From contig JAJYVH010000001.1 in NCBI GenBank assembly GCA_021792095.1, positions 509,324-573,323 on the forward strand: DNA of 64,000 bases, written 5' to 3'. A model generated the notes under the pieces. The model did not search any database. It was not told the origin of the DNA and saw nothing but the letters and a program-made list of their open reading frames with translations. Shown here one piece after another: positions 55,661-63,702 of the stretch. Both the position numbers and the translations under genes were made by a program. This DNA is from Candidatus Micrarchaeota archaeon. Lineage in GTDB: Archaea; Micrarchaeota; Micrarchaeia; Micrarchaeales; CABMGC01. Position 1 is the stretch's first letter, and each line of letters begins with the position of its first letter.

Positions 55661-55738
55661 ATCCTGGAGCAAACGGTGCTTGCATAATCTTTAATAATGT
55701 GCGTTGCGAGATACGAGAGAGTTCGGGCGTGGCTTTCA

Positions 55739-57745
55739 ATGGCCAATAAAAATAGGGGTAAAGGGGCTAGGCGCGTTCGGGCCAAGAGGGCGCAGTCGGC
55801 AGCTGAGTACCTGGTCACTTACAGCTGGGCCATACTGATAGTGGCCGTGGTGGTCGCCGTCCTATACCTGTTCGTCTCAGCGCCGCAGAGGATAGTGCCG
55901 TCGTCATGCGTCTTCAGCGTGGGCGCGTACTGCAACGATCTTGTGTTTGGTTCAAATGCCGTTTCGTCCAGCGTGGCGATGTTCCTTTCGAACAGGGAGA
56001 GCTACCCTATAGCGTATCCCAGCATAGTGCTCAACTACAGCGGCATTGCACCCATAACAGGCACGTGCAAACCCAACCTGGTCCTGCAGGGCGGGGCCAT
56101 AATATGCAACGTCACCATATCGCAGCAGGCAATAGCGCTCGGTGTGCTCGTGTCAGGCAAGCTGTATCTTACGGCCACGCCGTGCCCCAGCGCCAATGCG
56201 CTGTCGTGCCAGGGCGCCACCCCTGAGACGTACGCCGGCACGTTCAACACGCATACGTCTCCGCTGCTCGCCTCGACGCCCACTACAATAACTCTCACAG
56301 TGGCCAACTCCACGCAGGCTGCAGATGGCGCCAGGGACAGGCTCACCGCAGTAGTGAAGATGCTCGGCACCCCTGTGGCCGGAGCCACTGTCAACTTCAC
56401 TATGAACAACAGCATAGCGACTGTGTCGCCGGTTATAACAACCACAGACAGCGCTGGCGACGCGATATCGTACATCTCCAGCACGCATACCGGCAACGTG
56501 CTCGTCACTGCGGCCTTCGCAGGCGAGACGGCCAACGTGCCTGTATTCTTCGTGACTCCTGCAGTCACAACAATTGGCCTTGGTTCCAGCATAGCCGGCA
56601 AGATGTGCAATTCAGGCAACCCCAACCAGGTGGTCGTGACCGTGGACGGCATAAACTATGCGTGCTCCCAGTTGCCTGTAACGCAGGACTGGCAGCCCGG
56701 CTCGCAGCAGACATATGCGTTCACCAGCCCAATAACGAACTCCAGCAACGGCAACATACGTTATGTTTGGAACACTACCTCCGGCTGCAGTGCGACAGGC
56801 GGGCAATCGGGCACGTTCACCGCAGGCTCGTCCGGCTCCAACTGCACAATCACCACCACGTACACCACCCAGTACTACCTAAACAACTACGCCAGCCCCA
56901 GCACTGGCGGCAGCGTCAGCCCGGCGGCGGGCTTCTACAACGCAGGCTCGGTGCTTGCGCTTACTGCAACGGCCAGTTCCAACTACCTCTTCTCGCAGTG
57001 GCAGGGCACAGGCTCCGGCAGCTACACCGGCGTCACCAACCCTGAGAGCATAACGCTGAACGCCCCTGTGATAGAGGAGGCGCAGTTCTCGAACCAGGAG
57101 TCCTCCTCCTCCACCACAACCTACGTCTCTTCGTCCTCCTCCACCACAACCTACGTCTCTTCGTCCTCCTCCACCACAACCTACGTCTCTTCATCCTCCA
57201 CCACAACCTACGTCTCTGCGTCCACCACCACCTACCAGTCCACGACTACTTACCAATCATCCTCCACCACCACCATAATCCCACCCCCTACCTACATCTC
57301 CATCTCATCTTCATCTTCATCCTCAACCACCACCATAATCCCACCCCCTACCTACATCTCCATCTCATCTTCATCCTCCACCACCACCTACCAGTCCACC
57401 ACCACCTACCAGTCCACCACCACCTACCAGTCCTCCTCCACCACCACCTACCAGTCAACCACCACCGTCTCCACAACCGTCACCATCATCACCATCACCA
57501 TACGTGAATCCACCACCACCTACAAGTCAACCACCACCTACCAGTCCTCCACTACCACTACGATATTATACTGCACCAGCGGTACCTATTTTTCTACGTA
57601 CAGCGGTACTTCGTGTTCCTACGACTGTGGCCACCTTGGTGTATGTGATAACATATACTACTGCAGCACCGGAGGCGTAGAAAGCAGTGGTTGCTACGCA
57701 ACGGGCTCGAATACCTGCGCCCCGTCCGGGTGCACAGTAGGGTGA
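55739..57745 (+). CDS. Large surface protein with an archaeal type IV pilin-like (class III) signal peptide, Ig-like domains, a Ser/Thr repeat stalk and a Cys-rich C-terminus
   Basis: The N-terminus is MANKNRGKGARRVRAKRA-QSAAEYLVTYSWAILIVAVVV. A Big_1-like segment reads LTAVVKMLGTPVAGATVNFT, and there is an InlB-B-repeat-like segment. These are followed by SSSTTTYVS/TTTYQS repeats. Confidence 0.7.
   Translation: MANKNRGKGARRVRAKRAQSAAEYLVTYSWAILIVAVVVAVLYLFVSAPQRIVPSSCVFSVGAYCNDLVFGSNAVSSSVAMFLSNRESYPIAYPSIVLNYSGIAPITGTCKPNLVLQGGAIICNVTISQQAIALGVLVSGKLYLTATPCPSANALSCQGATPETYAGTFNTHTSPLLASTPTTITLTVANSTQAADGARDRLTAVVKMLGTPVAGATVNFTMNNSIATVSPVITTTDSAGDAISYISSTHTGNVLVTAAFAGETANVPVFFVTPAVTTIGLGSSIAGKMCNSGNPNQVVVTVDGINYACSQLPVTQDWQPGSQQTYAFTSPITNSSNGNIRYVWNTTSGCSATGGQSGTFTAGSSGSNCTITTTYTTQYYLNNYASPSTGGSVSPAAGFYNAGSVLALTATASSNYLFSQWQGTGSGSYTGVTNPESITLNAPVIEEAQFSNQESSSSTTTYVSSSSSTTTYVSSSSSTTTYVSSSSTTTYVSASTTTYQSTTTYQSSSTTTIIPPPTYISISSSSSSSTTTIIPPPTYISISSSSSTTTYQSTTTYQSTTTYQSSSTTTYQSTTTVSTTVTIITITIRESTTTYKSTTTYQSSTTTTILYCTSGTYFSTYSGTSCSYDCGHLGVCDNIYYCSTGGVESSGCYATGSNTCAPSGCTVG
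57101..57560 (+). repeat. In-frame coding tandem repeats (30-nt SSSTTTYVSS x ~4, ~66-nt SSTTTIIPPPTYISISSSS x 2, 15-nt TTTYQ x several)
   Basis: Direct nucleotide repeats tcctcctccaccacaacctacgtctcttcg run from 57104. A second unit lies at about 57250-57380 and accacctaccagtcc units run to about 57550. Confidence 0.85.
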
Positions 57746-60119: not shown

Positions 60120-62057
60120 TCATCCGGGCCGCTTCTCTATGTCGAACTTGCTTAGGGTGCGCATGCGCCTGCTGGCGAACGGCCTGAACTCCCTGCCGTT
60201 CCCGGAGAAGAACTTGGAGAAGAACTCCACGTAGATGAGCCTCGCCCCCTGTATGCCGGGCTCGAAGATCGCTATGAGCATGTTGAAGAGCTGGCCTATC
60301 ACCAGTATGGCTATGCCCACCGCGCCCAGCAGGATCGAATGCTGTATGCCCTTCAGGAAGATGAGGTCTATGACCTCCGCGAGTATGACAGATGCGAGCA
60401 GTATGCCCACCAGCCTGGTGTACGAGAGTATGTGGCTTATGAGCGATGGCAGTTCCATCAGCGCCTCGAAGCCCTCCCCGTAGAGCACAGTCGCCATGCC
60501 CCCGACCAGGAGCGCGTACGCCAGTATTGCGAGCGGGTTCGAAAGGCCCAGGGGCTGCGCGTGCAGCACTGCCAGCCCCAGTATCACTATCGCCCATGCG
60601 GCCGCGAGCCAGCCCAGCTTGGCCGCCGCCTTCTTAGTCTCGCCGGCGGCCATCCTGTTGAGGAAGCCGAGCGCGAAGCCGAAGGAGACCATGAACACGC
60701 CTATCCACCCGGATATGACGAGCAGCGTAGCCACGTTCGCAGTGACCGAGAACGGCGCCGTGTAGGGCAGCTGGAAGCCGAAATACTCGTTGAAGAGCAC
60801 CCCCAGGGCGATTGCTATCACCGAGCCCGGTATTATGGACCTCATTACCGTGTTGAGGCCGTTGTTGCTTATTATGGTGTGGACGAATCCGGAGAGCGCT
60901 TTAGGTATCCTGCTCTTCTTAGGCGGGTGGGCAAGCCTCCTGTTGAGCCATACGGCCCCGAGCAGGAACGCTGCGCCGTAGCCGACGTCGCCTATCATGA
61001 GCCCGAAGAATATGGGGAACACTATCGCAAATATGAGCGTGGGGTCGACTTCGTCGCTCCTGGGCAGAGAGTAGAACCTTATGAAGAACTCGTAGAGCCT
61101 CGCATTCACGGGGTTCTCGAGCTTTGTGGGCGGCAGGGCGTCGGTCCTTACGTTTTCCATAACGAATGCATTGCTAGTTATGCGGCCTACCTCGTGGCTG
61201 AGCCGGTGCACGCTCTCCTCCGGCACCCAGCCGTCTATGGCCACTATCGACCTCCCTATGCCGAGCCTCGCCGTTATCTCCTGCTTCTCCACCTCAAGGT
61301 CCAGCTGCTCCCTTATCGCGCTCACCTCCGGGTAGTATTCTTTGGATATGCGCTCCAGCTCTTCCTCGAACACTCGCTGCCGCCTGCGGTTGTCGGCGAC
61401 CGCCTTTTCTAGCGCCTGCAGTTCCGCTTCCGCGGTTCCTGACAGCTTGGGCACCGGTTCGACGTGCAGTTTCGTGCCTTCCACGAGCTTGCTGAACTTC
61501 GCCTGGTCCGACTTGTCTATGCAGACGAGGACCGACGCGGTCCCGGCGAGCACTATCGCGTCGCCGAGCTCCTTCGGCGCAGTGGCCGCGAACTCGTTGA
61601 TGTGCTGTCCCGTGACAAGGAACGACGCTATCCTGCTTGTTGTGAGCATGGACAGGTCCTGCGTGAAAGCGGCGGGCATGTGCTTCAGCGTAGCTATGTT
61701 CCTAAGGACAAGGTTGGTGTCGGCGCTTATGTCGTCGATACGCTTCCTTACGTGCGCCACTTCCTTGTCTATCTTTATGCTGTCCGCCTTCTCGAGCAAC
61801 TCGTCGATGCTTTCGAACCTGTACTTCGCGTCCGATTCGCTCCTGTACAATTGGCTCTCGAGGCCCCTGAAGCGTTGCGCATAGTCACCTATCTGCCCGC
61901 GCCCGTAGCCATCGCCTTTGTTGAGCAGGGCAGCAGCCTCGGCCGGCACGTATTCGATCTGCATCACGCCCATGTCGTGCAGTATGGTAAGGACGCGCTC
62001 GGAGTGCCCCTTGGAGAACACGAGCCTTATCCTTCGCATCTTCGCCGGCTTCAGCAT
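60120..62057 (-). CDS. atpI: A/V-type ATP synthase subunit I
   Basis: 645 aa starting MLKPAKMRRIRLV. The N-terminal half is cytoplasmic coiled-coil and the C-terminal half is multi-TM with the conserved Arg region (SYTRLVGILLAS). Confidence 0.85.
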   Translation of the reverse strand: MLKPAKMRRIRLVFSKGHSERVLTILHDMGVMQIEYVPAEAAALLNKGDGYGRGQIGDYAQRFRGLESQLYRSESDAKYRFESIDELLEKADSIKIDKEVAHVRKRIDDISADTNLVLRNIATLKHMPAAFTQDLSMLTTSRIASFLVTGQHINEFAATAPKELGDAIVLAGTASVLVCIDKSDQAKFSKLVEGTKLHVEPVPKLSGTAEAELQALEKAVADNRRRQRVFEEELERISKEYYPEVSAIREQLDLEVEKQEITARLGIGRSIVAIDGWVPEESVHRLSHEVGRITSNAFVMENVRTDALPPTKLENPVNARLYEFFIRFYSLPRSDEVDPTLIFAIVFPIFFGLMIGDVGYGAAFLLGAVWLNRRLAHPPKKSRIPKALSGFVHTIISNNGLNTVMRSIIPGSVIAIALGVLFNEYFGFQLPYTAPFSVTANVATLLVISGWIGVFMVSFGFALGFLNRMAAGETKKAAAKLGWLAAAWAIVILGLAVLHAQPLGLSNPLAILAYALLVGGMATVLYGEGFEALMELPSLISHILSYTRLVGILLASVILAEVIDLIFLKGIQHSILLGAVGIAILVIGQLFNMLIAIFEPGIQGARLIYVEFFSKFFSGNGREFRPFASRRMRTLSKFDIEKRPG

Positions 62058-63366
62058 TCACCCAATCCCCTCGAAAGGAAGCCCACCTCCTCTAGAGGCG
62101 GGATGAATTTCGAGCATAACCCTATTAATATCCTCTCCTAAACAGTTTTGGTTGAAGACGTGGAACGCGCCATTCTTTTGCAGATTGAACCGACGGGCCG
62201 GAAGGAGGCCATACTCGCCGATTTCAGCCGTGAGGCGGTTTCCGAGTTCAATCTGCTGCTCTCCGAGACGGAAGGATGCGAACGGATCCGAGAATTTCAC
62301 CACAAGGTCTGCCATCCTTCCAAAGACAGGACGCATTTCAACATCCAGGTCGTGACCTCCTTGATACGAGATGCCTGGAGGAAGAAATGCGACAGAGTGG
62401 AACGATTGACTGTCAAATTCAATGTTCCACGAAACTGCAAGACCTTTTCCACCAAGTCCCTCGACTTCGTGGAGTTTGGGATAAGACCACGAGACAGGGC
62501 TGCGGTGCCTATTGTGAAGAACAGGAACTGGCAGAGATACAATGCACTCCTTGCGGATGGCTGGGCCTGCAAGACCTACGGGCTGACCTCCGACCTCCAG
62601 ATCGTCGCCTATCTTTCCAAGGGTGAGACGCCAATTCCGCAGAGGAAGAACGTCCTCGGTATCGACTTCAACGCGAAGAACATAGCGGTGACCATCCTCT
62701 CCCCACAGAATAAAGTACTGAGGCAGTCCTACTTCGGAAAGAGGATATGGATACGTCGCAAGGAGATTATGAGACGCCGTGCCATTCTGCAATCCTACGG
62801 AAACGAGAAGGCACTGCGGAGGCAGAAGACCTATGAGAGGAACTTCGTGGGCACGAACCTCGGCCAGACCATCGCCGAGATAATGCGCCTTGCGCTCGAA
62901 TACGATGCAGACATCTCGATAGAGAACCTCAAGAGGTTCAAACCGAAGGGCAGGCGGTTCAACAGGACCGTGATGAGGATGCCCTTCAGGAAGTTCAGGG
63001 AAATCCTTGCCTCCCGCTGTTTCGACAGGAACGTTACGCTCGACATCGTGGACTCGTGGCATACAAGCAAATACTGCAACCACTGCGGTGCTGTGGCTGC
63101 AAACGGGCACAGTCATGGGAACTATGCCCTGTTCAGGTGCAAGGAATGCGGAGTTGCTATGAACTCCGACAGGAACGCAAGCAGAAACATTGCGTTGAAA
63201 TGCCTTTTGGAGCGGAACAATGTCTTCAACCAACAGTCGTTCCAGATTTCCAATAGGGGAGGTCTTGTAAGCGACCTCGGCTTGTCTGATGAAACTGGTT
63301 TGTCGGTTGCTGTGCAACATTCAAATCATCTTGATGGAAAGCCCACAGGCTTTAGTCGTGGGTAGC
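62058..63366 (+). mobile_element. TnpB-only IS200/IS605-family (IS1341-like) element filling the atpH-atpI spacer
   Basis: There is no tnpA. A left-end hairpin lies at 62082-62102 (cccacctc-ctcta-gaggcggg) and a right-end hairpin at 63338-63353 (aaagcc-caca-ggcttt). Both ends share GAAAG..AGCCCAC. It is AT-richer than its flanks. The exact ends are not determined. Confidence 0.5.
62148..63365 (+). CDS. tnpB: TnpB (OrfB_IS605) RNA-guided nuclease family protein
   Basis: RuvC-like residues are LGIDFNAKNI (D), DISIENLK (E) and NSDRNASRNI (D). The zinc finger is CNHCG...CKECG. TTG start. Confidence 0.85.
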   Translation: MVEDVERAILLQIEPTGRKEAILADFSREAVSEFNLLLSETEGCERIREFHHKVCHPSKDRTHFNIQVVTSLIRDAWRKKCDRVERLTVKFNVPRNCKTFSTKSLDFVEFGIRPRDRAAVPIVKNRNWQRYNALLADGWACKTYGLTSDLQIVAYLSKGETPIPQRKNVLGIDFNAKNIAVTILSPQNKVLRQSYFGKRIWIRRKEIMRRRAILQSYGNEKALRRQKTYERNFVGTNLGQTIAEIMRLALEYDADISIENLKRFKPKGRRFNRTVMRMPFRKFREILASRCFDRNVTLDIVDSWHTSKYCNHCGAVAANGHSHGNYALFRCKECGVAMNSDRNASRNIALKCLLERNNVFNQQSFQISNRGGLVSDLGLSDETGLSVAVQHSNHLDGKPTGFSRG

Positions 63367-63702
63367 TTACGCACCATACTCGTCCTCCAGTATCTTTGCG
63401 AACGCGTCCAGCGCGTCCTCGGCGCCCACGTGACCGAGTCCCGACGTCCTGGACTTCCAGCTCTTGGCTATCTCCGCCGCTTTGGCGCCGGCCTCCTTCT
63501 CCGTTTCTGCCATCTTCTTGCTGTATGCAGCCTCGGCCTCCCTCTCGGCCGCGCTCTCGCGGTTCTCGGCGTCCTTCCTGGCGCCCTCTATCTTTTTGGC
63601 GGCCTCCTCCTTCGCCTTCGCCACTTCCTTCTCTACCCTGTCCTCCTTCTCCTTTATCTCCTCGAGCGTCTCCATGTCTGCCATCGAACCACCATCAAAC
63701 AA
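63367..63702 (-). CDS. atpH: A/V-type ATP synthase subunit H (coiled-coil peripheral stalk-like)
   Basis: 111 aa, Glu/Lys/Ala-rich (LEEIKEKEDRVEKEVAKAKEEAAKKIEGARKDAE...), immediately upstream (operon sense) of atpI except for the IS. Confidence 0.55.
   Translation of the reverse strand: MFDGGSMADMETLEEIKEKEDRVEKEVAKAKEEAAKKIEGARKDAENRESAAEREAEAAYSKKMAETEKEAGAKAAEIAKSWKSRTSGLGHVGAEDALDAFAKILEDEYGA

Follow-up and report, generated by a model that had tools for sequence, protein, structure and literature searches.

The 64,000-nt window analysed here (positions 509,324–573,323 of contig JAJYVH010000001.1, assembly GCA_021792095.1) comes from an archaeon of Candidatus Micrarchaeota, which belongs to the DPANN archaea, and the genome of which (G000) is a single contig of 771,545 bp with a G+C content of 56.5% and a coding density of 86%. 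Two A/V-type ATPase genes are located on the minus strand near the right end of the window, namely atpI (subunit I; 60120–62057; profile match to V-type ATP synthase subunit I, E = 4.5e-183) and atpH (subunit H; 63367–63702), the latter giving a weak match (4.3e-9) and being supported in its identity by synteny in relatives. Between them lies a tnpB gene on the plus strand (62148–63365; 405 aa when counted from a TTG at 62148), and its TAG stop (63363–63365) is one base away from the stop codon of atpH (63367–63369), a layout that had been described in a first-pass annotation of the window made from the sequence alone. The gene is part of a 1,309-bp element (62062–63370, plus strand) comprising a left end, tnpB, a putative omega-RNA region, and a right end. 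Taken as a whole, this element is in all probability a non-autonomous, tnpA-less insertion sequence (IS) of the IS200/IS605 group, of the TnpB-only (IS1341-like) type, and its family appears to be adapted to operons.

The borders of the element were defined by comparing occupied and empty sites. In two congeners (G008 and G001; same genus), the atpH/atpI site is empty, and the TGA of atpH directly abuts the ATG of atpI. In the orientation of the window, the empty site reads CAGCAT TCAC / GCACCATAC (in its wider form, GCATTCAC / GCACCATAC), and the occupied site reads CAGCAT TCAC / CCAATCCCC...GGGTAGCTTAC / GCACCATAC (i.e. GCATTCAC / element..CTTAC / GCACCATAC). Because the tetranucleotide TCAC (62058–62061, plus strand) is present only once in the empty sites, this comparison places the element at 62062–63370 and indicates insertion without target duplication, at a point 3′ of TCAC and exactly between the stop codon of atpH and the start codon of atpI. 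The mode of insertion read from these sites is that of IS200/IS605. The comparison with relatives lacking the insertion, which the first-pass annotation had proposed, thus defined both the ends and the TCAC target, and the borders given there (62058–63366) have been corrected accordingly. It also speaks against a gene that is fixed at this locus, since the site is empty in both congeners. The earlier view that atpH and atpI are natively adjacent holds, but the element does not fill a native spacer, because the two genes abut as TGA-ATG in the relatives. TCAC therefore represents the target, or a tetranucleotide resembling a target-adjacent motif (TAM); with the T contributed by the complement of the atpI start codon, it becomes TTCAC. 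Across the family, the consensus preceding the left end on its 5′ side is A-[T/A/C]-TCAC, and TCAC or a near variant was found there in 23 copies.

A second copy of the element is located 88 kb away in the same genome (G000:C1:481897-483208, or 481991-483202 in a narrower delimitation; L002 1409-2720), sharing 86% amino acid and 84.6% DNA sequence identity with the copy described above, and the DNA similarity spans 62070–63370 of the window. This copy sits between the start of rps6e and the stop of cdc48, and the TAA of cdc48 is again provided by the right end of the element. In G008, the rps6e/cdc48 junction is occupied by another lineage of the TnpB family (58% amino acid identity); judged from these sequences, the site has been hit more than once, or the element has been replaced there. 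Only some of the related genomes contain family members (55–86% identity), with two to four copies each that are often located at contig ends. This patchy, multi-copy distribution, together with the diverged second copy in the same genome, bears out the initial reading of the locus as a mobile element. In a scan of one genome per species, 69 loci were identified, which span Micrarchaeota, Nitrososphaerota, Iainarchaeota, Altiarchaeota, Thermoplasmatota, Bathyarchaeia, Aenigmatarchaeota, and one Asgard metagenome-assembled genome. All 24 full-length copies with both ends placed are ~1.3 kb in length and TnpB-only.

Both ends of the element carry subterminal imperfect hairpins, and there are no terminal inverted repeats. 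The left-end hairpin (CTCGAAAGGAAGCCCACCTC / GAGGCGGGATGAATTTCGAG; 62070–62114, plus strand) consists of an inner and an outer stem, which both covary in 27 copies; the hairpin previously placed at 62082–62102 is real but represents only the inner part of this structure. In the family, the left end takes the form TCAC / C(T/C)AATCTCGACAAGGAAGCCCAC-loop-GTGGGAGGAATTGTCGAG, followed by a TATA-like box and then by the start of tnpB. The right-end hairpin (GCCCACAGGC TTTA GTCGTGGG; 63341–63363, plus strand) covaries in 38 copies and also codes for the C-terminus of TnpB, with six of its nine pairs being changed on both sides; a hairpin had been noticed at this end as well, but its position (63338–63353) was offset from the covarying one. 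The family form of the right end is GGAAAGCCCAC-N4-TTTA-N4-GTGGGTAG-TTTAC, and the terminal TTAC (63367–63370, plus strand) is invariant in 38 copies, its TTA being the TAA stop of atpH on the minus strand. The GAAAG..AGCCCAC motif common to both ends was correctly recognized and is conserved across the family. The ends, the borders and the TnpB motifs (see below) all agree with the original assignment to a TnpB-only IS200/IS605-type element with subterminal hairpins.

The TATA-like palindrome TATTAATA (62123–62130, plus strand) falls on an A/T-rich box (TTATATAT) that is conserved in the left-end alignment. This box is probably the promoter of tnpB, lying ~20–25 nt before the 5′ pairing segment described below; as a palindrome situated 65 nt from the start of atpI, it could also fire towards atpI. 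No match to the Y1 TnpA profile (PF01797, Y1_Tnp) was found in the element, as had been stated, or anywhere else in the 771,545-bp genome. Y1 TnpA is present in 20 of 40 relatives, and an autonomous IS of G008 that contains both tnpA (L122 588-980) and tnpB has the same left-end hairpin (GAAAGCCCAC..GTGGGATGAAT), and mobilization in trans is therefore plausible. Because G000 has no TnpA, the element is non-autonomous, and both copies are probably immobile and stranded in this genome now. Two distant TnpB genes of G000:C1, at ~310537 and ~696684 (L003 and L005; 26–29% identity), have the same end hairpin, GGAAGCCCAC-N4-TTTAG-N4-GTGGGAGG, despite their differing proteins, which suggests that one TnpA specificity is common to several TnpB families.

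The assignment of the tnpB gene rests on profile matches, catalytic residues, fold, and substitution rates. Its product matches Cas12f1-like_TNB (7.8e-15) and the NCBIfam model guided_TnpB (2e-24), the latter over residues 164–350 only and with a whole-protein score of 86.5 against a cut-off of 100. The true start is likely to be the GTG at 62160 rather than the TTG at 62148, as judged from the family alignment (MKRAILLQ). The RuvC residues D173, E259, and D341 and the zinc-finger residues C310/C313/C331/C334 are invariant in seven family members, and a family-profile alignment lines up the D/E/D and CxxC motifs with the catalytic residues of the solved TnpB 9nzp, so that the motifs described earlier as intact are so and the RuvC residues had not been misaligned. 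The family profile matches solved TnpB and Cas12f chains at E values of ~1e-16, in the C-terminal half only. The AlphaFold2 (AF2) model of TnpB (seven sequences) has a predicted local distance difference test score (pLDDT) of 57, reaching 70–88 in the RuvC core, and its best full-length Foldseek matches are Cas12f and TnpB complexes (E values of 6e-12 to 4e-10). The gene is intact and under purifying selection; in the sense frame, the ratio of nonsynonymous to synonymous substitution rates (dN/dS) is about 0.15 (range 0.11–0.28), with dS ranging from 0.57 to saturation (>2).

Cas12f (type V-F) was first found in DPANN archaea (PMC7229846), and the protein encoded here shares with it a length of ~400 aa, the fold (Foldseek E = 6e-12, TM ~0.40), and the RuvC/zinc-finger core. 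The best structural matches are Cas12f, and a match to NCBIfam Cas12f2 was also obtained (5.9e-24), although it is far under the cut-off. It is nonetheless extremely unlikely that the gene encodes a miniature type V CRISPR effector resembling Cas12f: no direct-repeat (CRISPR) array was found in 62000–63450, there are no adaptation genes, atpI and atpH flank the gene directly, the transposon ends and the TAM-adjacent insertion are present, and the guide would be derived from the transposon flank. TldR proteins, which are nuclease-dead repressors that have lost the RuvC catalytic residues and their transposon context, are likewise derived from TnpB and have a guide beside a host gene. The absence of TnpA from G000, the purifying selection on tnpB, and a guide position that overlaps a host gene would all agree with a TnpB domesticated as a TldR-like regulator, or as another host-recruited RNA-guided protein, and fixed at atpH/atpI. 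However, the site is empty in two congeners, D/E/D is intact, both ends are intact and covary, and family copies reside at many different sites, and we regard such a domestication as very unlikely.

The 3′ part of the element is predicted to encode a structured RNA. When the terminal 220 nt of 38 copies were aligned, covariation revealed an omega-RNA-like scaffold of ~195 nt (63176–63370, plus strand), which ends at the right-end TTAC and consists of five helices on the same strand: helix 1 (63176-78/63192-94), helix 2 (63203-12/63248-57), helix 3 (63259-64/63273-78), helix 4 (63306-10/63314-18), and helix 5 (63341-50/63355-63), the last being the right-end hairpin. Helix 3 is the stem GAGGTC-N8-GACCTC (63259–63278), which the first-pass annotation had already pointed out and in which four of the six pairs covary. 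Compensatory changes were found in 22 of the 33 pairs, and 94.4% of the cells are paired, compared with 36–50% when the partners were slid and 80.1% in shuffles. The covariation score of 0.412 compares with values of at most 0.13 with slid partners and was reached by none of 500 shuffles. Several G-U pairs are conserved (e.g. in 38/38 and 35/38 copies); these would be C-A on the other strand, and the structure therefore belongs to a plus-strand RNA. The synonymous sites of tnpB are at random expectation in the first 300 alignment columns, and identity at these sites rises only in the last ~140 columns (0.48 and then 0.71, compared with 0.30–0.37 expected), which is the pattern expected if an omega-RNA overlaps tnpB at its 3′ end. 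A structured RNA at the 3′ end had been anticipated, and the covarying helices argue against its absence; the Rfam search itself gave no match in or near the element at E-value or gathering thresholds.

The position of the omega-RNA guide (GCACCATACTCGTCCTCCAG; 63371–63390, plus strand) was predicted from the known TnpB layout and from the empty and occupied sites. It is antisense to the last codons of atpH and follows TTCAC in the empty site, and the earlier suggestion that such an RNA would continue antisense into the 3′ end of atpH fits a structured RNA ending at the border. From the known behaviour of the family, we infer that the 3′ RNA is an omega-RNA and that the adjacent atpH sequence serves as its guide. 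By the same analogy, the complex of TnpB and omega-RNA would cut copies of the site that lack the element and offer both the TAM TTCAC and a match to the guide. The element would then be restored by repair with an occupied copy as the template, and movement to new sites would require Y1 TnpA in trans.

The start of tnpB is complementary to a part of the omega-RNA region. A 5′ segment over the start (62148–62161, plus strand) can form 12/12 Watson–Crick pairs with a 3′ partner (ATGTCTTCAACCAA; 63220–63233, plus strand) located in the variable loop enclosed by helix 2. Covarying complementarity of 10–16 nt was detected at the same two positions in about two-thirds of 40 copies, with 36 different sequences, whereas the pairing length in a shuffle control had a mean of 5.4 and a maximum of 11. 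Under symmetric scoring, the ratio of G-T to A-C mismatches in this pairing is 21 to 14, which is compatible with plus-strand RNA, minus-strand RNA, and single-stranded DNA alike. The pairing could allow the omega-RNA, or the 3′ end of the mRNA itself, to cover the start codon and repress tnpB; it could instead act within a single-stranded DNA intermediate.

The two ends reproduce the punctuation of the operon. Read on the minus strand, the sequence is GGT GCG TGA ATG in the empty site and GGT GCG TAA GCTACCC..element..GGGGATTGG GTGA ATG in the occupied one. The GTAA with which the right end terminates preserves the last codon of atpH and places a TAA stop at the same position, and the original GTGA still precedes atpI after insertion. 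TCAC on the minus strand is this GTGA, i.e. the original TGA stop of atpH together with the 3′ part of the Shine-Dalgarno (SD) core GGTGA. The 3′ end of the 16S rRNA reads ...GAUCACCUC, i.e. ...UCACCUC, and the reverse complement of this core is thus formed by TCAC and the C with which the left end begins; the left end then adds A/G-G, giving an (A/G)GGTGA SD sequence for the downstream gene. Only ~92 of the 4,245 TCAC sites in the genome are gene-terminal GTGA stops, and both copies of the element are on such a site. Across the family, the upstream gene stops at the TAA of the right end in 14 of the 19 loci that could be called, Asgard and Nitrososphaerota copies among them, and the ATG of the downstream gene is 8–9 nt away from the left end in 11 of 20. 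The flanking genes are opposite in orientation to tnpB in 26 of 33 callable cases on the left and 21 of 25 on the right. These genes were called with a codon log-odds model trained on G000, as choosing the longest open reading frame (ORF) let shadow ORFs beat atpH; the model scored tnpB at +56, its antisense at −72, and atpH at +65, and it is less reliable in distant phyla, where many flanks were uncallable. The anatomy of the ends suggests that this family may have been adapted to sit backwards in operons.

The strand opposite to tnpB contains an open frame of 420 codons (62058–63320, minus strand), running from an ATG at 63320 to the TGA of the TAM just before the ATG of atpI. Because this frame shares its codon boundaries with tnpB, the sense codons TTA, CTA, and TCA are the only possible sources of stops in it. 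In G000 and relatives, the antisense frame is open over 418–432 codons in seven of eight copies and contains 0–4 stops, compared with 3–43 in the other four non-coding frames. In these eight copies, TTA and CTA together account for 3 of 280 Leu codons and TCA for 9 of 243 Ser codons, whereas other A-ending codons are used normally (GCA 25%, GGA 35%), even where the G+C content of third codon positions (GC3) is 0.46–0.50. The antisense start codon, which is the CAT of a conserved His codon, is present in most copies. Gene callers that go by length choose the wrong strand here, since the antisense ORF (420 aa) exceeds tnpB (405 aa).

For the species scan, antisense-stop codons in the gene core of 43 intact copies were compared with the numbers expected from the usage of A at third codon positions (A3). 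Copies with an open block of at least 400 codons (full; 20 copies) contain 2 such codons where 227, or in round terms about 170–230, are expected, those with a block of 320–399 codons (mid; 14 copies) contain 3 where 196 are expected, and those with a block of <320 codons (none; 9 copies) contain 39 where 68 are expected; since these groups are defined by the very feature that is counted, the fair statement is the family-wide one, i.e. 44 seen and 491 expected in all 43 copies, with a bimodal distribution. As a calibration, 14 other TnpB genes of G000 and relatives contain 210 where 282 are expected, which means that the A3 null is ~1.3-fold generous. L003 and L004, two distant TnpBs of G000, have ordinary antisense stop counts (7 and 8, respectively). 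Among the 16 full-frame copies with placed ends, the frame passes through the non-coding left end and ends exactly on the TAM TGA in 12, and in 13 the left end has a length that keeps the phase. In the family tree, the trait occurs on either side and is absent from three places or more; it has thus been kept across distances at which synonymous sites are saturated. Two copies, L039 and L082 (=L031, G014:C22), have an in-frame nonsense codon in tnpB and an antisense frame that is still open over 425 codons.

An open frame could arise without any function, as a by-product of codon usage, of composition, or of the shared ancestry of the copies. Antisense frames that share codon boundaries with a gene generally contain the fewest stops, TTA, CTA, and TCA make up only 1.3% of the codons of G000, where 5 of 239 long genes have none of them, the A3 null over-predicts ~2-fold for the G000 controls L003 and L004, and the copies, being related, are not independent. 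On the other hand, copies with a GC3 of 0.27–0.50 also lack these codons while using other A-ending codons freely; synonymous sites are saturated (dS 0.57 to >2), which means that the pattern cannot have been preserved by ancestry; in the same genomes, TnpB genes of other families have 7–32 such codons; and the openness of the frame through the non-coding left end, with the phase kept and the end on the TAM TGA at the frequencies given above, adds to these points. We consider a by-product unlikely.

Slightly less likely still is that the frame encodes a functional protein of 340–420 aa overprinted on tnpB, e.g. a transposition or regulatory factor. Its persistence across deep divergence, the start codon in most copies, and its openness in L039 and L082, where tnpB is interrupted, would be in line with such a protein. 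However, antisense first positions, which are sense third positions, show an identity at four-fold codons of 0.30–0.35 in the first 300 columns, compared with 0.29–0.33 expected at random, none of seven antisense translations gave a Pfam match, and the AF2 model of the antisense product (22 sequences) has a pLDDT of 29.5 and a predicted TM-score of 0.13, with every residue <50. In addition, the host codon model disfavours the frame by the score given above, and its C-terminal extent differs between clades. The antisense dN/dS by the NG86 method is ~1, as selection on the sense frame alone predicts for this phase, and the synonymous-site test was used instead. Given that there is no amino acid conservation, Pfam match, fold, or host codon score, it is the absence of stops that appears to have been selected, not a protein. 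Support is poor for the by-product explanation and for a real antisense protein alike.

Our own reading, to which we give somewhat less than even credence, is that the element has an operon-compatible body whose stop-free antisense frame acts as a relay, being translated on the host read-through transcript. In this proposal, the element would target junctions at which the TGA of the upstream gene forms part of the SD sequence (GGTGA) of the gene that follows, as at its insertion 3′ of TCAC where the TGA of atpH abutted the ATG of atpI. The right end would then swap in its own TAA for the upstream stop, and the antisense frame of ~420 codons would be held open with its sequence itself unconstrained. 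Ribosomes could thus cross the element and terminate at the original TGA beside the ATG of atpI, by which translational coupling to the downstream gene would be kept and polarity avoided. The first-pass annotation had held that the insertion separates atpH from atpI transcriptionally; the stop-free frame and the kept stop and SD sequence point instead to tolerated read-through.

Several observations weigh against the interpretation of the element and its frame given here. At rps6e/cdc48, the TAM position of the empty site is CTAC in G001 and G002 rather than TCAC, and this site therefore offers no clean before-and-after comparison. The NCBIfam scores of TnpB are under the family cut-offs, and its N-terminal half has no profile match. 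The grouping of copies into full, mid, and none is weakened by its circularity, as explained above. With respect to the relay, the antisense ATG is 46 nt past the stop of atpH and is preceded only by a weak SD-like GATGA, the frame of the mid group fails to reach the left end by ~245 nt, for which a relay alone offers no explanation, and T-runs on the antisense strand are not clearly depleted in number, runs of five or more T being few on both strands.

The element shares with the known TnpB-only members of IS200/IS605 (IS1341-like; ISDra2 and IS608 as references) the RuvC D-E-D and zinc finger, the subterminal hairpins, duplication-free insertion on the 3′ side of four or five specific nucleotides, an omega-RNA (predicted here) overlapping the 3′ end of tnpB up to the right border, and, plausibly, mobilization by a Y1 TnpA acting in trans. 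It also shares a right end that finishes in a target-like tetranucleotide, with TCAC as the target and TTAC as the end in this case; IS608 uses TTAC and TCAA. It differs in that similarity to profiles and solved TnpBs covers the C-terminal half only, and the stop-free antisense frame of ~420 codons, the stop-replacing right end, the SD-core target, and the pairing between the tnpB start and the omega-RNA region are family traits of which we know no earlier account. Literature searches on TnpB with antisense ORFs, Micrarchaeota, translational coupling, and stop-free opposite strands gave no description of them. The element itself is another TnpB-only IS, and it is the architecture at the family level that we did not find described in the literature. 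In strategy, although not in kinship, it resembles group I and II introns and inteins, which are selfish elements that offset the damage they cause inside an expressed host unit; there is no splicing here, and the proposed means are the replaced stop, the kept SD sequence, and a translatable antisense frame.

Elsewhere in the window, a 682-aa ORF (55697–57745, plus strand) has at its N-terminus a sequence similar to archaeal class III (pilin-type) signal peptides, a tail of long Ser/Thr-rich STTTY(Q/V)S repeats, and a Cys-rich stretch at its end, and it probably encodes a surface or pilus-like protein.

The exact borders, the TAM, and the predicted omega-RNA structure make the element testable as a compact archaeal RNA-guided nuclease. 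The antisense ORF, which is longer here than the real gene, is a warning for gene callers. More broadly, the locus raises the question of how a selfish element can persist in a genome of 0.77 Mb, of which 86% is coding and which offers hardly any free space. This family appears to mimic the punctuation of operons, i.e. the stop codon and the ribosome-binding site, and to keep the reverse strand translatable. If translation of the antisense strand does take place, it would clearly exemplify an open frame that is under selection although its protein product is not, and it would provide a handle on transcription–translation coupling and polarity in archaea.

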